The translations under genes were made by a program, and so were the position numbers. DNA of 44,901 nt from Chromatiales bacterium (GTDB taxonomy: Bacteria; Pseudomonadota; Gammaproteobacteria; JACCXJ01): NCBI GenBank assembly GCA_043673925.1, contig JBIMKC010000004.1:1-44901 (forward strand), in the 5' to 3' direction. Positions 13,876-43,625 of this stretch are shown in pieces; position 1 is the stretch's first letter; each line of letters starts with the position of its first letter. Under the pieces are notes generated by a model. That model had not been told where the DNA came from, searched no databases, and saw nothing but the letters and a program-made list of their open reading frames with translations.

Positions 13876-15443
13876 ACAAGGATATCCTTACTGTCGTCGA
13901 GGTTGTTTCCAACGAGAAGGGGGTAAATAAGGAGATCATTTTCGAGGCCTTGGAAGCGGCGCTTGCGAGCGCGACAACCAAACGTTATCGCAACGACATC
14001 GATGTGCGCGTATCCATCGACCGGCAGACCGGGGACTATGAAGCCTTCCGGCGTTGGCAGGTTATCGATGAGACCGTAGCCACCCTTGCGGCGGAGGCCG
14101 GAACCGATGGCGCCCCGATCGGCACGGGCGGGATCGAGTTTCCAGAGCGTCAAATCTCTCTCAGCAAGGCGCGCGAGATCCGTCCCGAGGTGAGCCACGG
14201 CGAATATATAGAGGAACCCATGGAGGCTGCGGCGTTTGGGCGTATCGCCGCGCAAGCGGCGAAGCAAGTCATCGTTCAGAAGGTGCGCGAGGCCGAACGC
14301 AAGCAGATTGTGGAAGCCTATGAGAGCCGCATGGGCCAGCTAATTACCGGCGTCGTGAAGCGCGTCGATCGCGGTAGCGTGACATTGGATCTCGGCGGCA
14401 ACGCGGAAGCGATGATTGCGCGCGAGGATATGATCGCGCGCGAAGCAGTGCGGCCGGGGGATCGGCTACGAGGATACTTGAGCGAAGTGCGGCCGGAGAA
14501 ACGCGGTCCGCAGTTATTCGTCAGCCGCACGGCCACGAAGCTCCTAATCGAGTTGTTCAAGATCGAGGTTCCCGAGATTGGTGAAGGTCTCATCGAGGTG
14601 CTCGGGGCGGCGCGCGATCCGGGTCTGCGCGCGAAGATCGCCGTCAAAAGCAAGGACCCTCGGATCGATCCGGTCGGCGCCTGTGTCGGCATGCGCGGGT
14701 CGCGCGTGCAAGCTGTCTCCAACGATCTCGCCGGAGAACGGGTCGATATTATCCTTTGGAATGAAAACCCGGCGCAGTTCGTCATTAACGCCATGTCGCC
14801 CGCCGAAGTCGTGTCCATCATAGTGGATGAGGATGCGCACAGCATGGATGTGGCGGTCGTGGAGGAGCAACTATCGCAGGCGATCGGCCGTAACGGGCAG
14901 AACGTCCGGCTCGCGAGCCAACTGACCGGCTGGGAGCTGAATGTGATGACCGAAACCGAAGCGGCCGACAAGACCGAGGCGGAAGCCCAGCGTATACAGC
15001 AGATATTCGTAGAAAATCTGCATGTCGACCAGGAAGTCGCTAACATTTTGACGCAGGAAGGCTTCTCGAGCATCGAGGAAGTCGCGTTCGTTCCGGAACA
15101 GGAAATGATCGAGATCGAGGAGTTCGATGCGGATCTGGTGGCCGAGTTACGCAATCGGGCCAAGGATTGGTTATTGACCAAGGCCATCGCCACCGAGGAA
15201 CGTCTCGGTGATGTCATGCCGTCGGAAGATCTGCTCAATATGGAAGGCATGGATCCAGAGCTAGCCTACCGGTTGGCCGCGGGGGCAATTGTGACAATGG
15301 ACGATTTGGCGGAGCAGTCGGTAGATGAGCTGGTAGAAATCGGTGGCATCAGCGGCGAGCGGGCCGGCCGGCTCATCATGACCGCCCGCGCCCCGTGGTT
15401 TAAGGCTGCGCAGGAAGAGACCGGGGAGCAGGTGCATGGCTGA
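13872..15443 (+). CDS. nusA: Transcription termination/antitermination factor NusA
   Basis: 523-aa ORF starting [18 protein letters not shown], with S1 and KH domains ([35 protein letters not shown]) and C-terminal acidic repeats. ATGA overlap with rimP. Confidence 0.97.
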
Positions 15444-17961
15444 AGTGACGGTTAAGCAGTTCGCGGACGTGGTTGGAATTTCCATCGACCGGCTGCTCGC
15501 GCAACTGGGCGAGGCCGGGCTGCCGGATAAACAACCCGGCGATCCAATGAGCGATCGGGAGAAAAACCAATTGCTTGTCCATCTGCGGCAGCTGCACGGG
15601 CGCGCCGATGAAAGCGCCGAACCGAACCGCATCGTCCTGCGCCGCAAGACCATCAGTGAAATCAAGCTCCCTACCGATCGGCGTAGCGTGCGCAGCAGCA
15701 GCAGCACAAAAACGGTGAGCGTCGAGTTCCGCAAGAAGCGCACCTATGTGAAACGTAGCGTATTCGCGGAGGCAGAGGCACAGCGCCGAGCCGACGAGAC
15801 CGCGGAACAAGAACGGTTGGTGGCCCTGAAGCTCGGCCGCGCCCGCGAGGAAGAGGTCAAAACCCAGGAGCTGGAAGCGCGCCGGCGTGCCGAGGAAGCG
15901 GAGGCTCGCGCACGGGCCGACGCCGAGCCGGAACGAGTCTTAGCGCCGGTGGAGGAGGCGCTCCGCGAAGCGCCACCACGGATCCCGATCCCGGCCGCTG
16001 CGGAGCCGCTGGTAAAACGCCAAGCCCACACCGATAAGGTCCCGGCCAAGCGCCAAAAAGAGCCGTCAAGCGAACCGGTCATCGATCAGCGAGAGTTGCA
16101 TGTTGCAATCAATAGAACGACCCGCCGGAAGAAGAAACCGGGGCCTCGGCGAATGGTCGTGCCGCTCGCGCCCAAGCACGGTTTCGAGATGCCGACGGCG
16201 CCCATCGTGCGTGAGATCGCGATCCCTGAACGGGTCACCGTCGCCGAGTTGGCGCAACGGATGTCGGTCAAGGCGGCTGAGGTCATCAAAGTCATGATCA
16301 ACCTCGGGACGATGGCGAGCATTAATCAAGTGCTCGATCAGGAGACGGCGGTGATAGTGGTTGGGGAGATGGGCCACAAGGCCAAGCCGCTTAAAGACGA
16401 TGCGGTGGAGGCGGAACTACTCGGAGTTCCCGATACCATCGAGTGGGAGAAAGTGGCGCGCCCCCCCGTGGTCACGATCATGGGCCACGTCGATCACGGC
16501 AAGACTTCATTGCTCGATCACATACGCCGCACCCGGGTTGCTGCCGGAGAGGCCGGCGGGATCACGCAGCATATCGGCGCTTACCATGTGCTCGTCCGGG
16601 AGGGCTCCATTACGTTTTTGGATACGCCGGGTCATGCGGCTTTTACGGCCATGCGGGCGCGCGGCGCTAAAGTCACCGACATCGTGGTATTAGTGGTCGC
16701 GGCCGACGACGGGGTGAAAACGCAAACGATCGAGGCCGTGCAGCATGCGCAGGCGGCGAATGCGCCGATACTGGTCGCCGTCAATAAGATCGATAAGCCG
16801 GGCGCGGACCCCGAGCGCGTTAAGCAAGAGTTAACGGGGCACGGCATCGTACCGGAGGAGTGGGGAGGGGATGCGATATTCGTGAACGTTTCCGCTAAGA
16901 CTGGGGAAGGTATCGACCGCTTACTGGAATCGATCCTGCTGCAGGCCGAGGTTCTCGAGCTCCTGGCGGTGCCCACCGGACCGGCGTCCGGGGTGGTGAT
17001 CGAATCCCGATTGGACAAGGGGCGAGGCCCGGTCGCCACGATCTTGGTGCAACAAGGCCTGCTCAAGCGGGGAGATATTTTACTCACGGGCCAGGAATTC
17101 GGCCGCGTCCGCGCGATGTTGGATGAAAACGGGCTATCGATCGAGGAAGCCGGGCCGTCGCTGCCCGTGGAAGTCCTGGGCTTGTCGAGTGCCCCCAATG
17201 CGGGCGATGAGGCGGTGGTCGTCGCCGATGAACGCAAGGCGCGCGAGATCGCCCAGGTTAGGCAGGGTAAGACTCGAGAAGGCAAGCTCGCACGGCAACA
17301 AGCAGCCAAGCTCGATGATGTTCTGCTGCAGATGGAGGAAGGAAAAACCAGTAGCCTGAACGTCTTGATTAAAGCCGACGTGCAAGGATCCGCGGAAGCC
17401 TTGGTCGATGCCTTGACTAAACTCGCCACCGACGAGGTGCGCGTCAACGTCATCGCGAACGGTGTGGGCGGGATCAGCGAGTCCGATGTGAATCTCGCCG
17501 TGGCGTCGAAGGCGATCGTGATCGGGTTCAACGTGCGCGCCGATGCCAGCGCCCGGAAGTTGGTCGAAGAAACCGGCGTGGAGCTACATTATCACAGCAT
17601 TATTTACAACGTGATCGATGAAATGAAAGCGGCATTGAGCGGTATGCTCGCACCGGAGGTCAAGGAGCAGATTATTGGCATGGCGGAAGTACGCGATGTG
17701 TTTCGATCGTCGAAGTTTGGCGCGATCGCGGGTTGTATCGTCACGACCGGCGCCGTGCGCCGCGCCAACCCTATACGCGTGCTGAGAAATAACATCGTGA
17801 TTTACGAAGGGCAACTGGAGTCGCTGCGCCGCTTTCGGGACGATGTCAACGAAGTGAAATCCGGCACCGAATGCGGAATCGGCGTTAAGGACTACGACGA
17901 TGTGAAGCCGGGCGACCAGATTGAAGTCTTCGAGCGCATCACGCTCGCTCGCAGCATCTAG
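15436..17961 (+). CDS. infB: Translation initiation factor IF-2
   Basis: 841-aa ORF with a charged N-terminal region and a GTPase domain ([27 protein letters not shown]). 8-nt overlap with nusA. Confidence 0.97.
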
Positions 17962-24134: not shown

Positions 24135-25049
24135 ATGAAACCGGCGCCGGGTATTGAAACCGCGCTTGACGCGGCCGATGTGGCGGTCATCGGGCGTTTT
24201 CTCGATTGCCTCTGGATGGAACGCGGGCTAGCCAATCATACTCTAAGTGCCTATCGTTCGGATCTCACCGCCTTTAGCCGCTGGGTGAGAAAGGAGGCGC
24301 GCGAACTTCACTGCGTGGATCGTGGCGATTTGTTGCGATATCTCGGCAATGGCGTGTCGGCAAGGACCACGGCGCGCCGGCTATCGAGCTTGCGGGTCTT
24401 CTATCAGTACCTATCACGGTTAGGCTTGGTGAAGGAGGATCCCACGAATCGAGTGCAAGGACCGCGACTAGCGCGATCGCTGCCCGGAACCTTGTCGGAA
24501 GCGGAGGTGGATGCCCTGCTGCGGGCGCCCGATGGCGACAAGCCCATCGGCATGCGCGACCAAGCGATGCTTGAGCTAATCTACGCAACGGGTTTGCGGG
24601 TGTCGGAGTTGGTCACGCTCACCTGCAGCCAGATCAATCTACGGCAAGGTGTGTTGCGCGTGACGGGCAAGGGGAATAAGGAACGGCTGGTGCCGATGGG
24701 AGAGACCGCATTGGGCATTATCAGCCGGTATCTAGATCTCGCGCGCCCGGCGCTGCTGGCGGGCGGGGGGGCGGAGGTCTTGTTCATAAAAAAGTGCGGT
24801 CAAGGCATCACGCGCCAGGCTTTCTGGAAAATGGTTAAGCGGTATGCATGGCAGGCTGGAATTCACAAATCTATTTCTCCGCACACCTTGCGGCATGCGT
24901 TCGCGACTCACCTTTTGAATCACGGCGCCGATCTTCGCGTCGTGCAACTCCTCCTCGGACATAGCGACATCGCGACGACACAAATCTATACCCACGTGGC
25001 GCGAAGCCGGCTCAAGGAACTGCACGCGGCGCACCATCCGCGCGGTTAG
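24135..25049 (+). CDS. xerD: Site-specific tyrosine recombinase XerD
   Basis: FLDCLWMERGLANHTLSAYRSDL at the N-terminus. Catalytic R..HxxR..Y context in the C-terminus: LRHAFATHLL, GHSDIATTQIYTHV. ATG 24135 is preferred to the track start 24108. Confidence 0.9.
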   Translation: MKPAPGIETALDAADVAVIGRFLDCLWMERGLANHTLSAYRSDLTAFSRWVRKEARELHCVDRGDLLRYLGNGVSARTTARRLSSLRVFYQYLSRLGLVKEDPTNRVQGPRLARSLPGTLSEAEVDALLRAPDGDKPIGMRDQAMLELIYATGLRVSELVTLTCSQINLRQGVLRVTGKGNKERLVPMGETALGIISRYLDLARPALLAGGGAEVLFIKKCGQGITRQAFWKMVKRYAWQAGIHKSISPHTLRHAFATHLLNHGADLRVVQLLLGHSDIATTQIYTHVARSRLKELHAAHHPRG

Positions 25050-25235
25050 CAGTAGCCTTAAATTCAGAAGTCCTGGCTCTTTTGCGGGTGTATATCGGCT
25101 GTTACACGGGTCCTTTTAGACACGTTCACGCCTTCCGCGCCAACTGAATGTGCCGGGCGTGATAGGAACATACTTAACTAACATCGGGTCAGAAGGGAGT
25201 ACCCCGTCTGGGGGAACATAAGCGAGGAATATGAG

Positions 25236-25958
25236 ATGCGTATACCAATGGCCATCGTAGCGGGAGCCGTGTCCGTCGCACATGCCGCCGTCTTAGCGGA
25301 TACCTCGGTGGAACAAAGGCTTAGGTCTGTTCTTAGCGAAGCCTTACCAGGGATCGAGATAGCGTCGATACGCCCGGCGCCGCTCAAGGGGATGCACGAA
25401 GTCGTGCTCGGAGGAGAGGTGATCTATGTTTCCGATAACGGACGCTTCATATTAAAAGGCGATCTGATGGATCTCAAGGACAAAAGGAATATCAGCGACG
25501 AGCGGCGGGCCCAGGCGCGGATTACAGGCTTAAAGGCAGTCCCACCCAATACCATGATCGAGTTTGCGCCGCCGGACACCCAGCACGTGTTGTACGTGTA
25601 TACCGATGTCGATTGCGGCTACTGCCGTAAATTCCACCAGGAAGTCGGGGCCTTGAACGCGGCAGGTATCGCGGTCCGGTATCTCGCATTTCCACGCGCG
25701 GGCGTAGGTTCGGAATCCTTCAAGAAATCGGAATCGGTCTGGTGTGCTGCGGACAGAAAAGCGTCCCTTACCGAGGCCAAAGCCGGCAAGCCCGTGCCAG
25801 CGGCGACTTGCGATAATCCTGTTAAGACGCATTACGAGCTCGGAACGCACATGGGGGTGAGAGGTACGCCCGCCCTCATCAGCGAAGACGGGCAGGAGTT
25901 GGGAGGCTACGTTCCGGCGGAGCAACTGATTCAATATGTAAGGAAGGGCCGGTCGTAA
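25236..25958 (+). CDS. dsbC: Periplasmic thiol:disulfide interchange protein DsbC (or DsbG-like)
   Basis: Signal peptide, N-terminal dimerisation domain and a CGYC active site. The xerD-dsbC adjacency matches E. coli. Confidence 0.82.
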   Translation: MRIPMAIVAGAVSVAHAAVLADTSVEQRLRSVLSEALPGIEIASIRPAPLKGMHEVVLGGEVIYVSDNGRFILKGDLMDLKDKRNISDERRAQARITGLKAVPPNTMIEFAPPDTQHVLYVYTDVDCGYCRKFHQEVGALNAAGIAVRYLAFPRAGVGSESFKKSESVWCAADRKASLTEAKAGKPVPAATCDNPVKTHYELGTHMGVRGTPALISEDGQELGGYVPAEQLIQYVRKGRS

Positions 25959-37767: not shown

Positions 37768-38484
37768 TTAAACCGCGAGAAACTCCATTTTTATGCCCGC
37801 CAATTCAATGACATCACGATCTTTGAGCTGATGACTCCGCGCCCCAATCGGTTGCCCGTTGATAACCGGATAGATCGGTTGTTCGGCGGTCCCGCCCTCG
37901 ATATGCGTAATGAAATAACCTTGTGGTCGCCGTGATATCACGGCAACCTGCACGCCGGGCTTACCCAAGGTAATCGAGGCCTTGATCAGCTCGAGCTGCT
38001 TGCCGGCAACGGGCCCGTTTACAATGTTCAGCCGCCCCAGTGGCGAGCTCGTGGGCTGCAAGCTCGGCGAAGCCGCCGCACCAAAGCTTGGCGCAATTGA
38101 CGTACGCCCGATGGCCTTCGCGAGCGCCACGGCCGGTGTGGCCGTTCCGGGGCGCATAATATTGGTTTTTTCGAACTCGTCGTCATCGGCGGTGGCGTGC
38201 TCGTTGACATACCGGATCTCGTGTTTCCCGATGCTGATGACATCGCCGTTCCGTAGGGCGTGTTTCTTTATGACCTTGCCGTTGACGAATGTCCCGTTCG
38301 TGCTCCCGAGATCTTCAAGAAAGGAGTCGTCCAAGATTGTGATGACCAGGGCATGTTTACCGCTAACCGCAAGATTGTCGACCGGAATATCGTTGTCCGC
38401 TTTGCGGCCAATCGTCATGTGTTCTTTGGTAAGCGGATAGTCTCCTTGTACCACGCCGTTTAGACTAAGGACGAGTTTTGACAT
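37768..38484 (-). CDS. Double FHA-domain protein (canonical N-terminal FHA, degenerate C-terminal FHA-like domain)
   Basis: N-terminal domain: MTIGRKADNDIPVDNLAVSGKHALV...DLGSTNGTFVNGKVI..GDVISIG. C-terminal domain: ITLGKPGVQVAVISR...PVINGQPIG...DRDVIELAG. A Pro/Ala/Ser linker joins them. Confidence 0.85.
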   Translation of the reverse strand: MSKLVLSLNGVVQGDYPLTKEHMTIGRKADNDIPVDNLAVSGKHALVITILDDSFLEDLGSTNGTFVNGKVIKKHALRNGDVISIGKHEIRYVNEHATADDDEFEKTNIMRPGTATPAVALAKAIGRTSIAPSFGAAASPSLQPTSSPLGRLNIVNGPVAGKQLELIKASITLGKPGVQVAVISRRPQGYFITHIEGGTAEQPIYPVINGQPIGARSHQLKDRDVIELAGIKMEFLAV

Positions 38485-38501
38485 AACGACGCTCTATACG
38501 A

Positions 38502-38642
38502 TTAACTAACCCATCGTTGTAATTTTTTACGGGGCCAAGCAAAAATCGCTCTCCGATACGCACGCAGCCTAGCGATGACGAGAGAAATATTATCATGACC
38601 CCCGCGCTCATTGGCTAGAGCGATTAATCGGTCCCCCGCTCC
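38502..38642 (-). pseudogene. C-terminal relic of a PP2C-family Ser/Thr phosphatase (no start codon)
   Basis: The frame reads ..GDRLIALANERGGHDNISLVIARL..*, matching the terminal PP2C motif (L..A...GG.DN.T). There is no in-frame ATG/GTG/TTG after the fdxA stop. Upstream, this frame is merely an out-of-frame reading of fdxA. Confidence 0.6.
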
Positions 38643-38655
38643 TACCTCGCTGGCG

Positions 38656-38979
38656 CTAGCGCTGCAGCATGTCCAACTTTCCCTTGACCTCGCGCCACTC
38701 GTCGGCGTCGGGAGGCGCCGGTTTGCGCTGGTTGATGACCGGCCACGCCTTCGCCAACTCCGCGTTGAGGTCGAGGTAATGCCTTTGTTGTTCAGGCAAA
38801 TCATCTTCGGAGAGGATTGCATCCACCGGGCACTCCGGTTCACAGAGCGTGCAATCGATACACTCGTCGGGGTCGATGACCAGCATGTTGGGGCCTTCAT
38901 GGAAGCAATCGACAGGGCACACCTCCACGCAGTCCGTGTACTTGCACTTTATACAGGGTTCGATAACGACGAACGTCAT
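38656..38979 (-). CDS. fdxA: 7Fe ferredoxin (Azotobacter FdxA type)
   Basis: 107-aa ORF starting [52 protein letters not shown] perfect TATAAT on the minus strand (plus-strand coordinates 39009-39014) lies upstream. Confidence 0.95.
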
Positions 38980-39058: not shown

Positions 39059-41622
39059 CTATTCCACCAGCGCGCGCAAGCGGTAAATCTCTTCCAAGGC
39101 TCGCCGCGGGCTTAAGCCATCGGGATCTAAGGCGCGCAGCACCGTGAGGGCTGGCGGTTCCGCGACCTCATCGAATAACTCCATCTGTGGCGCGGACGGT
39201 TGAGGCGTCTCCAACCGTCGCCGCCGTTCCAGCCGCTGCAGCTTGTCCCGGGCACGGCTTACCACGGCGCCGGGGACTCCCGCCATCCGCGCCACCTGCA
39301 GTCCGTAGCTTTGATTTGCCGGGCCCTCTTGCACCGAGTGCAGAAAGACGAGCCGATCACCGTGTTCCACAGCATCAAAATGCACATTCGCAACTCCTTC
39401 CATTTCGACGGCCAACTCCGTTAACTCGAAATAATGCGTCGCGAACAGCGTATAGGCGCGTATTTCCCGCGCTAAGTGTTCGGCGGTCGCCCACGCGAGC
39501 GACAGACCGTCGAAGGTGCTGGTGCCCCGTCCGATCTCATCGATCAAGACCAAGCTCTGCGAGGTCGCGTTGTTGAGAATGTTAGCGGTTTCGGTCATTT
39601 CGACCATGAACGTGGAACGTCCACTCGCCAAATCATCCGCCGCGCCGATGCGCGTAAAGACGCGATCCAACGGACCAATTTTCGCCTTCGCGGCCGGAAC
39701 GTAACTCCCGCTGTAGGCGAGGATCACGATCAACGCCGTCTGCCGCATATAGGTCGATTTCCCGCCCATGTTCGGGCCGGTGATCATCAACATGCGCCGC
39801 TCATCGGCGAGGTGAAGATCATTGGGCACAAAAGGCGTCTCGTGGACCCGTTCGATCACCAGGTGCCGGCCGCCGTCGATCGACACCCCGCTGTCGCCGC
39901 AGAGCTCCGGGGCGTTCAGAGCGAGCGTCTCGGCTCGTTCGGCAAACGACGCGAATACATCGGCTTCGGCCACGGCGGCGCTCGCTGCCTGCAACAACGG
40001 CAGTTGTTGAATCAAGCGCGTAAGGATCTCTTGGTAAATTTCTTTTTCCTTGTCGAGCGCCCGCTGTCCCGCCCGGAGCGCCTCGGATTCAAGCGCGGCC
40101 AGTTCCGGCGTGATATACCTTTCCGCCGCCTTGAGCGTCTGCCTGCGCACGTAATCCGCCGGGATTTTCTGCTGATGAGCCCGGCCGATCTCGAGGTAAT
40201 AGCCGTGCACGCGGTTGTAGCCGACCCGGAGGTTCCCGATGCCCGTGCGTTCGCGCTCGCGGGCTTCGATCGCAACCAGCACCTGCCCGACGTCATCGCG
40301 CAAACGCCGCAATTCGTCGAGCTCGCGATCGTAACCCGTCGCGATGACACCGCCATCGTTTATATGGGCGGCGGGATCCTCCGCGATGGCCGCCTGGAGT
40401 AAGGTGCGCTGCTCGGGGAATCCCGCGATCGCTTGGGCGAGCGATTGCAGCCTGGGACTGTCGATCTCATCGAGCCGGCGGCTCAATTCGGGTAAGGCTT
40501 CGAGCGCGTTCCGGAGCTGAACGAGGTCCCGAGGACGCGCCGACCGAAGCGCGATGCGGGCCAGTATGCGTTCGATATCCCCGATCGCCCGCAGCGGCTG
40601 CCGCAATCCGTGCCAAAGGGCGTTCATCAGCAGGGCGCCGATCGCGTGATAACGCTGCCGGAGCGTGGCTTGGTCGCGGATCGGGCGATTCAACCAACGC
40701 CGCAACATGCGGCTGCCCATGGGCGTCACCGAGCTATCCATGATCCCGATGAGGCTGTGCTCCTTGGCTCCGAAAAGGCTGGCGTTTATTTCCAGATTGC
40801 GGCGCGTCGCGGCATCGAGGATCAGGCTCTCTTCCCGCCGTTCCACGCAGAGCTTGCATAAATGCGGCAAGGCGGTGCGTTGGGTATCTCGCGTGTATTG
40901 CAACAGCCACCGGCCGCCGCCAAGGCGGCGTCCAGGTCCTCGCACCCGAACCCCGCCAGGTCTTGGACTTCAAACTGCTGGGCTAATGCGCGTTTGGCGT
41001 GCTCTGTGTCGAAATGCCAAGGCGGCCGCCGGCGCAGGCGTGGGTCCGCGGTAAACCACGGCACGAGATCGGACGCTTCGCTTAAGAGCAACTCCGCGGG
41101 CTGCAGCCGCTCGATCTCGCCGCCAAGCGCCTCGCGCCCCGTGATTTCGAGGACGCTGAACCTGCCGCTGGCGAGGTCCAACGTGGCAAGGCCGATGCAC
41201 TCCCCTTGCGCGTGCACCGCCGCCAGCAGGTTGTCGCGGCGTTCTTCGAGCAACGCCTCCTCGGTCAGGGTTCCCGGGGTTACGATACGCGTGACGCGCC
41301 GTTCCATCGGCGCTTTGCCCGACTGCTCGCCCACTTGGTCGCAAATCGCGACTGAGTACCCCATACGCACGAGCTTGGCCAAGTACGAATCCACCGCATG
41401 CACGGGCACGCCCGCCATCGGGATAGGCGCCCCGGCCGAGATCCCGCGCGTGGTCAGGACAATGTCCAGTAAGCCCGCGGCTTTCTCGGCGTCGTCATAA
41501 AATAGCTCGTAGAAATCGCCCATGCGGTAGAATAAAAGCATCTCCGGGAAGTCCCCCTTGATGCCGAGGAATTGCCTCATCATGGGCGTATGTTCGCCGC
41601 CGCGATCCGCGCTCGCCGCCAT
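39059..41622 (-). pseudogene. mutS: DNA mismatch repair protein MutS, split by a 1-nt frameshift near 40904-40912
   Basis: ORF 40822-41622 encodes the N-terminus ([17 protein letters not shown]). ORF 39059-40945 encodes the rest ([41 protein letters not shown]). The frames switch within GCCGGTGGCTGTTGC (AAAG / LLQY). The span is 2564 nt, one short of a multiple of 3. Confidence 0.85.
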
Positions 41623-41744: not shown

Positions 41745-43625
41745 ATGAGTCATGACACCCAGACGGAAACCCGAGGTTTCCAGGCCGAGGTCCGCCAGTT
41801 GCTGGACCTGATGATCCACTCGCTTTATAGCAACAAAGAGATATTTCTCCGCGAGCTCATCTCCAATGCGTCCGACGCGGCCGAGAGGCTGCGCTTCGAG
41901 GCGCTCGGCAACGCGGCTTTATTCGAAAGCGACAGCGAGATCAAAATCGAAGTGGAGTATAGCGAGAACCTCAAGACCATCACGGTGCGTGACAACGGCA
42001 TCGGTATGTCACGCCAAGAGGTGGTCGAAAACCTCGGGACCATCGCCAAGTCGGGCACCCAGGAATTTCTCAAGGCCCTGACCGGCGACCGGCAGAAAGA
42101 CTCACAGCTCATCGGGCAGTTCGGGGTGGGATTTTACTCCGCCTTCATCGTCGCCGAGGAGATCACCGTCACGACCCGGCGCGCGGGCTTGGGCACTGAA
42201 GAGGGCGTGCGTTGGCAGTCCGATGGGAAAGGCGAGTACAGCGTCCGTACGGTGCCGCGTAAACTGCGCGGCACCGAGGTGGTTTTGAAGCTACGCTCCG
42301 GCGAGGAGGAATTCCTGAACGGCTACCGCTTGCGGGACATCATCGGCAAGTATTCGGACCACATCACCTTACCGATCCTCATGCCCAAGGAAGGCAAGGA
42401 CGCGAGCGGCTACGAACGGGTGAACGCGGCAACCGCGCTCTGGTCGCGGCCGAAGGGCGAGATCAGCGACGAAGAATACAACGAGTTTTATAAACATGTG
42501 GCGCATGACCATGAGGCGCCGCTCGCCCGCATCCATAGCAAGGTCGAGGGCAAGCTCGAATACACGCTGCTGCTCTTCATCCCGAAGCACGTGCCTTTCG
42601 ACCTCTGGGACCCCGAACACCGGCGCGGGGTGAAACTTTTCGTGCGCCGCGTGTTTATCATGGATGACGCCACGCAGTTGATGCCGCGCTACCTGCGCTT
42701 CGTGCGCGGTGTCGTCGATTCCAACGATCTGCCGCTCAACATTTCGCGGGAGATCCTGCAGGACAATAAGACCATCGACGGTATGCGCGCGGGCGCCGTA
42801 AAAAAGGTTCTGGGACTGCTGGAAGAGCTAGTGACCAAGGGCGAATACGGGGCCTTCTGGAAAACCTTTGGCCGGGTCCTCAAGGAAGGCTTGATCGAGG
42901 ACGCCCCGAACCGGGATCGGCTCGCCAAGCTCGCCCGTTTCTCGAGCACGCATACCGATAGCGAGGTTCAAGAGGTCTCGCTCGATGACTACCTGTCGCG
43001 TATGAAGGAAGGTCAGAGCGCGATCTATTATGTCGTCGCGGACGGTTTTGCCACCGCCAAGAACAGCCCGCATCTCGAGGTATTCCGCAAAAAGGGCCTC
43101 GAAGTCCTGCTGCTGTCCGATCCGGTGGATGAGTGGGCCGTGACCCATCTAACCGAGTACAACGGGAAGCCCTTGAAATCCGTTAGCAAGGGCGCGCTCG
43201 ATCTCGGGGTGCTGGAAGATAAGGAAGGCAAGGCAGCGGCGGAAGCCGGCGAGTACCAGGATCTCGTCGAGCGGATCCGCAAGAGCCTGGGCGAACGGGT
43301 CAAGGAGGTGCGAGTGACTCACCGCTTAACGATCTCACCGGCCTGTCTGGTTGCCGATGAACACGAGCTTGGCGCCAACCTGGAACGCCTGCTCAAGGCC
43401 GCAGGCCAGGACTTGCCGGCGACCCAGCCCATTCTGGAGATCAATCCCGAACACCCCATCGTGCGCCGCCTGCAGCGTGAACAAGAGGGCCCGCGATTCG
43501 AGGATTGGGCGCGCATCCTCTTCGACCAAGCGCTACTGAGCGAGGGCGGACGGCTCGATGATCCGGCCGGTTTCGTCCACCGGCTCAACGAGATGTTCTT
43601 AGTCATCAGCGGCGAGGCCGCGTGA
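41745..43625 (+). CDS. htpG: Molecular chaperone HtpG (Hsp90)
   Basis: 626-aa ORF with [35 protein letters not shown] and [12 protein letters not shown]. Confidence 0.97.

Follow-up and report, generated by a model that had tools for sequence, protein, structure and literature searches.

Does the split mutS gene of this contig record a real loss of mismatch repair (MMR), an error made while its sequence was built, or an arrangement that still yields a working protein? The stretch of DNA that was analysed (the window) is one complete public contig of 44,901 bp, JBIMKC010000004.1 of assembly GCA_043673925.1, deposited as a Chromatiales bacterium. In it, the coding sequence of MutS is divided between two overlapping open reading frames (ORFs). 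We favour, at roughly an even chance, a real and evolutionarily very young loss-of-function allele of mutS in the population or haplotype from which the contig derives. The lesion is neither an ancient pseudogene nor a recoding signal.

The disrupted gene occupies positions 39059–41622 on the minus strand. The six-frame ORF list places it in two minus-strand ORFs in different frames, an upstream ORF of 266 amino acids (aa) with an ATG start (41622 to 40822) and a downstream ORF of 628 aa in its longest form, with a GTG start (40945 to 39059). The upstream ORF encodes native MutS residues 1–239, then continues out of frame for 27 residues up to a TGA stop, and the downstream ORF encodes native MutS from Leu240 (40906). 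The two ORFs as listed overlap at 40822–40945; the downstream frame is really open from 40969, and both frames are therefore open over 148 nucleotides (nt), from 40969 to the end of the upstream stop codon at 40822. The span of 2564 nt is of length 3n+2, and any single base added between plus-strand coordinates 40907 and 40906 gives one ORF of 854 codons plus stop. The site of the missing base was placed at 40906–40907 (minus strand, GGT GG|C TG in the window) from DNA alignments with relatives, the absent base being the third position of Gly239 or, equally, one C of GGC|CTG. The first-pass annotation, made from the letters alone, had described a single-nucleotide frameshift splitting mutS, and the ORF list, Pfam and the one-base repair all agree with that description; its estimate of 40904–40912 for the site encloses the break located here at 40907/40906.

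The domain content was divided between the two ORFs as that annotation had proposed, with domain I and part of the connector in the first and the core, clamp and ATPase domains in the second. Pfam assigned MutS_I (4.2e-39, residues 12–122) and MutS_II (3e-22, residues 131–240) to the upstream ORF, and MutS_III, MutS_IV and MutS_V to the downstream ORF, with E-values as low as 3e-86. The mismatch-binding Phe-X-Glu motif (GxFYE) is present as MGDFYELF in the 266-aa ORF, aligned with E. coli MutS. Domains II–V were likewise recovered, and the Walker A motif GPNMGGKST and the DEIGRGTS motif (ATPase, Walker B) are both in the downstream ORF. The repaired protein matches the E. coli MutS structures 7ou2, 7ai5 and 1e3m over residues 9–853 (E = 0 to 1e-294), and its numbering is near one-to-one with E. 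coli MutS, which places the break at about residue 238–239, a position that we take to lie in connector domain II. The locus is thus a canonical MutS1 in each tested feature except frame continuity. The full set of MutS domains is spread over two ORFs in different frames, and no intact MutS is encoded at the locus as deposited.

To place the lesion among related genomes, two close relatives, L083 and L084, were fetched using the identical ferredoxin gene adjoining mutS as an anchor. The first-pass annotation had proposed a comparison with sister mutS genes, and in this comparison four of the four relatives examined by DNA were intact at the site. Contig L083 (GCA_973365495.1) is syntenic with the window, 96.8% identical over 11.9 kb, and encodes an intact MutS of 854 aa, while in L084 (Logan SRR24042732), which matches the window at 97.9% over 3.1 kb, the reading frame runs through the site unbroken. 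The same holds for L001 (GCA_050740555.1; 95.8% identical) and for a JGI metagenome contig, L085 (93.3% identical). The sequence there reads GCC GGC GGC CTG TTG in L083, L084 and L085 and GCC GGG GGT CTG TTG in L001, and GCC GGT GG- CTG TTG in the window. On these alignments, the difference would be explained most simply by the loss in the window of one C of the CC pair in GGC|CTG. The ancestral site is a perfect tandem, (GGCGGCC)x2, with GGCC, CCGG and GCCGGC motifs in it. The site had earlier been likened to E. coli AAGCLLQY, but the close relatives have AAAG-G-LLQY instead. Protein clusters at 90% identity contained at least eight further full-length MutS sequences (841–854 aa) from the clade. 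A pattern scan of genome contigs was dominated by conserved motifs and was uninformative, the closest among the matches listed being 61% identical.

The age of the lesion was assessed from private substitutions, counted over a multiple alignment of 12 kb. The window had 114 private substitutions, comprising 70 transitions and 44 transversions (61% transitions). Comparison lineages with intact mutS had 176 (L092, 66% transitions) and 89 (L091, 69% transitions). In MMR-deficient mutation-accumulation lines of Pseudomonas aeruginosa, transitions amount to 98.8% and indels are found in homopolymers only (PMC4702332). A long-standing mutator or MMR-less lineage was therefore rejected on the basis of the 61% transitions and the absence of excess branch length. 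The first-pass annotation had expected the strain to be a mutator if the split is real; neither these data nor the changes within mutS lend support to that. Within mutS, 18 of the codons private to the window are synonymous and 7 non-synonymous, the latter mostly conservative, and no second lesion was seen in the gene. An old pseudogene was rejected given the single lesion and the 18:7 ratio. Since the private changes are mostly synonymous and no second lesion is present, purifying selection acted on mutS up to a very recent time. Given the lack of both a mutator spectrum and decay, the deletion is an artefact or else extremely young.

Under the favoured reading of a young null allele, a canonical MutS that was functional until recently would have lost one C of GGC-CTG (Gly239-Leu240, connector domain). 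Translation of the upstream frame ends after 239 native and 27 aberrant residues, and weak internal initiation at GTG or TTG is the only route left to the core, clamp and ATPase part, which would lack the Phe-X-Glu mismatch-binding domain. Cells bearing the allele would be MMR-deficient mutators, and the allele would be too recent to have left a mutational signature or secondary decay.

Several observations support such an allele. The lesion is a lone, uncompensated 1-nt deletion with the remainder of the gene intact, and the mostly synonymous private changes make the substitutions of the contig look real. Loss of mutS is also demonstrably tolerated in the clade, as indicated by a large deletion in a sister lineage that is described below. 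More generally, mutS null alleles are a classic cause of natural mutator strains and are unusually frequent since mutators hitch-hike with adaptive mutations; LeClerc 1996 and Oliver 2000 are reportedly sources for mutS null alleles in natural mutators, and Li 2003 and Oliver 2002 are cited in PMC5296598. The deletion is furthermore not in a long homopolymer, where consensus errors of long reads usually arise (PMC9262707). The first-pass annotation had noted neither a homopolymer nor a slippery heptamer at the site, and neither was found in the 148-nt overlap, where the sole run of four or more identical bases is GGGG at 40954.

The alternative that survives best is an assembly or consensus artefact, in which the organism has an undamaged mutS and the building of the consensus left out one C of GGCCTG. 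Long-read consensus error, low coverage in a GC-rich tandem repeat and the collapse of a strain bubble are the proposed causes. We regard this explanation as a serious one, its probability falling a little short of even. A number of results count in its favour and against a real allele, beginning with the origin of the contig. Among the members of the 90%-identity clusters are the HtpG and MutS proteins of "Chromatiales bacterium USCg_Taylor", all others coming from soil-metagenome MAGs (metagenome-assembled genomes), and the USCg_Taylor contig L090 (GCA_002007425.1) shares 95.8% identity with the window across 12 kb. USCg_Taylor is a MAG of the uncultured upland soil cluster gamma (PMC12871462). 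Because the window comes from an uncultured clade, and is an entire contig of it, it almost certainly belongs to a MAG of the USCg_Taylor clade and is thus a metagenome consensus. Frameshift-causing consensus indels are well documented in MAGs (PMC9262707, PMC12007338).

The allele is, moreover, unique to this contig. The 90%-identity protein clusters held no other truncated copy of MutS, only full-length or contig-end-truncated ones. An exact look-up of the 266-aa product gave no match beyond the window's own contig, the exact proteins of the window being known from this contig alone, and a metagenome-wide scan with a pattern fitting both alleles returned one contig, L085, which is intact. 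The mutator signature of transition excess and a long branch was not found in the 12-kb alignment of the window, a result that fits a young allele and equally a non-existent one; the absence of secondary decay and of a mutator spectrum, together with a low ratio of non-synonymous to synonymous change (dN/dS), is the expectation for an intact gene carrying one error.

Long-read-style contigs of close relatives are also full of frameshift errors. L086 and L091 (ENA ERZ25039565, contig_54991 and contig_30484; Flye-style), which align to window 11.9–31.4 kb at 96.6–98% identity, contain about 5 gene-breaking indels per 20 kb, with 1–2-nt breaks that fuse nusA with infB and split infB, pnp, xerD, memo/AMMECR1 and waaA. 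Such breaks are typical of unpolished long-read assembly and contrast with the clean window.

The accuracy of the rest of the contig bears directly on this explanation. Pfam domain coverage is essentially complete in the 41 further genes checked, with the exception of a 194-aa ORF without a Pfam hit, which is nevertheless syntenic and of the same length in L083; positions 1–11.9 kb were assessed by Pfam completeness only. Relative to the same-species MAG GCA_973365495.1 (L083 and L092, about 30.5 kb aligned at 96.4–97.3% identity), nine indels were found. Four of 1 nt and one of 3 nt are intergenic, two in-frame indels of 6 nt lie in htpG and the DUF3108 gene, one of 2 nt falls in the final codons of the latter, and the mutS deletion completes the set. 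The comparison was extended to five more relatives at 93–96% identity. Against these, the other coding indels whose length is not a multiple of three are located at gene 3' ends (waaA 30583, methyltransferase 44550, DUF3108 26035) or are compensated, as with the −1/+1 pair 9 nt apart in the DUF3108 gene (26589/26598, minus strand) relative to the USCg_Taylor group. The DUF3108 gene, which also has 6-nt and 33-nt in-frame indels, is fast-evolving but keeps its frame. The indel pattern of the contig is that of real variation filtered by selection and not of random consensus errors.

A generally indel-ridden assembly was therefore rejected as a blanket explanation, with 41 genes full-length and no further mid-gene frameshift. 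The coding sequence examined amounts to about 40 kb, and zero such events in it put the 95% upper bound on the indel error rate at roughly 1 per 13 kb. This rate must therefore be low in the window, yet one leftover error is compatible with the bound. The artefact is also disfavoured by the site itself, which is only a 2-nt run, and by the unusual commonness of real mutS nulls, one of which is present in the sister lineage.

A further local feature is a cluster of three window-private transitions around the deletion (40889–40909, minus strand). These are 40909 C>T, synonymous in a Gly codon, 40894 G>A, which replaces Ala with Thr, and 40889 G>A, synonymous in an Arg codon. The deletion thus shares 21 nt with three private substitutions, inside the (GGCGGCC)x2 tandem, and the cluster is the only one within mutS to reach at least three private changes in 22 nt. 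By chance, co-location of the deletion with such a cluster has a probability of about 0.02. Either the cluster and the deletion arose as a single complex event or an imported patch, or the consensus is locally poor in a GC-rich tandem repeat. The co-location pulls towards an artefact without settling the matter. On the other side, a control region of 12 kb contained four clusters by the same definition, in nusA, in infB and in two intergenic positions, and the frame is kept in all of them, including the two in genes. A chimeric join, or haplotype switch, at the site was rejected, the mismatch profiles against L083 and L084 being even on both sides.

Two of the control clusters are of some interest in themselves. 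The nusA patch near 14086 (window 14080–14110) has 8 changes in 22 nt with 4 amino-acid changes (TPAVDLG to TLAAEAG), and the infB patch near 16974 (window 16970–16995) has 3 over the same length, one of them Ala>Thr. Private patches of this kind occur about once per 3 kb, with imported patches, complex mutations and consensus problems as candidate origins.

Much further behind is a split but functional MutS, in which the separate fragments would assemble non-covalently or the C-terminal fragment would have taken on a new role; we consider this highly improbable. Both halves are open and undamaged, there are GTG and TTG start candidates in the overlap, and the gene caller behind the public record predicted a 614-aa product for the downstream piece from TTG 40903 (P0142). 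The candidates for initiation in the downstream frame are GTG 40945, TTG 40903, which has GGTGG before it, TTG 40870 and GTG 40846. The overlap has no ATG, no well-spaced Shine–Dalgarno sequence and no stop–start coupling. The first-pass annotation had credited the downstream ORF with an ATG of its own; this part of its interpretation does not stand, as the longest form of the ORF starts with GTG 40945 and the first in-frame ATG (40741) lies 81 nt past the upstream stop, whereas its structural reading of a one-base loss does. Internal initiation would yield a product from which all of domain I, the bulk of domain II and the Phe-X-Glu motif are missing, and a product without this motif could not recognise mismatches, as is established from MutS structure and function. 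The split is also absent from all relatives, including those 97–98% identical, so that no lineage maintains the arrangement. Instead of separating two domains, the break interrupts a helix within the connector domain, and 27 nonsense residues end the upstream piece. To our knowledge, there is no precedent for a functional two-piece MutS1.

Restoration of full-length MutS by programmed −1 frameshifting or transcriptional slippage has in its favour only that passage from the upstream to the downstream frame takes a −1 shift and that the frames overlap by 148 nt, and it was rejected as having a negligible probability, the overlap containing neither an X_XXY_YYZ heptamer nor an A/T run for polymerase slippage, the two-frame arrangement being unconserved (a single ORF in every relative, four of four compared by DNA), and no recoded mutS being known to us.

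The tolerance of mutS loss mentioned above rests on a sister lineage of about 93.5% nucleotide identity to the window, in which mutS carries an in-frame deletion of 1770 nt (590 codons). The remnant that persists between htpG and fdxA is 264 aa long and consists of about the first 187 residues of MutS fused to about the last 77 (L002:1298–2092, L096:6001–6795 and L097:2522–3316), and the corresponding window segment 39297–41058 is absent. The carriers are L002 (Logan SRR27067780), L097 (Logan SRR27067772) and L096, a 74.7-kb contig of the MAG GCA_975305705.1; a fourth Logan product (P0167) has the same junction and a further frameshift. The copies differ by about 0.4%, with a few amino-acid differences in the remnant, and the deletion therefore predates their divergence. 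Microhomology at the junction is short and imperfect (about 4–6 nt). An assembly artefact is unlikely here, because a k-mer assembler is not expected to join across so short a microhomology. Transitions and transversions among the copies numbered 8/6, 7/1 and 8/1, counts too small for a test of mutator spectrum.

This raises the broader proposal that the clade, made up of uncultured, slow-growing relatives of upland soil cluster gamma, loses MutS repeatedly and tolerates the loss, and that the window frameshift is a real, independent second inactivation, which we hold to be possible but unlikely. If it were true, MMR-less populations would be normal in the clade or another repair route would substitute for MutS. 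The sister deletion has outlasted 0.4% of diversification without an obvious transition-dominated spectrum, within the small counts given.

The lesion matches two known categories, natural mutS nulls and MAG consensus indels, and is nothing new in kind or mechanism. Natural mutS null alleles are typically young and transient. Those of E. coli, Salmonella and Pseudomonas aeruginosa likewise each involve a single small lesion while the canonical mutS is otherwise undamaged; in contrast to them, the window allele is known from one metagenome-derived contig alone and has no mutator signature. A lesion of this kind is expected to put an end to mismatch recognition and to increase the rates of transitions and homopolymer indels about 100-fold or more (PMC4702332). 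The fragmenting indels of MAG and long-read assemblies (PMC9262707, PMC12007338) similarly split conserved single-copy genes by a 1-nt change absent from relatives, whereas the indel in the window is the sole break in 44.9 kb, is not in a long homopolymer, and is accompanied by other indels that have been filtered by selection. A mobile element in mutS has been described in Vibrio splendidus (PMC5296598), and this case and the sister deletion are comparable in that environmental populations carry disrupted mutS at appreciable frequency. Those lesions are large insertions or deletions, while that of the window is a point deletion; the Vibrio insertion is potentially reversible by excision, and the window deletion has no repeat favouring reversion.

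The genes on either side of mutS look full-length. An fdxA-type ferredoxin gene (38656–38979, minus strand; Pfam Fer4 and DUF3470) lies directly downstream, and its protein is identical in L083 and L084. The htpG gene (41745–43625, plus strand; HSP90, 4.5e-129) is divergent from mutS and intact, with the in-frame 6-nt indel relative to relatives noted above. In L096, of the mutS-deletion lineage, genes for DUF4124, a protein kinase and a PP2C phosphatase are present between fdxA and an FHA-domain gene, and this trio is absent from the window (FHA gene–fdxA spacer, 38484–38656) and from L083. A Ser/Thr protein kinase gene (261–288 aa) between xerD and dsbC occurs in most relatives (L086–L091, L093–L095) and is absent from the window (xerD–dsbC spacer, 25049–25236) and from L092. 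Identity of the window to single relatives is mosaic, for example at 98% to L086 over 11.9–24 kb and 92–95% over 24–31 kb.

If the frameshift is an artefact, the locus illustrates that lone frameshifts in MAGs should not be taken as biology without read support. If it is real, the contig would represent an MMR-deficient subpopulation within an uncultured clade whose relatives include atmospheric methane oxidisers, and the reading of within-population diversity and recombination in this clade would be affected. Taken with the deletion in the sister lineage, a real allele would be a hint that the group can do without mismatch repair.

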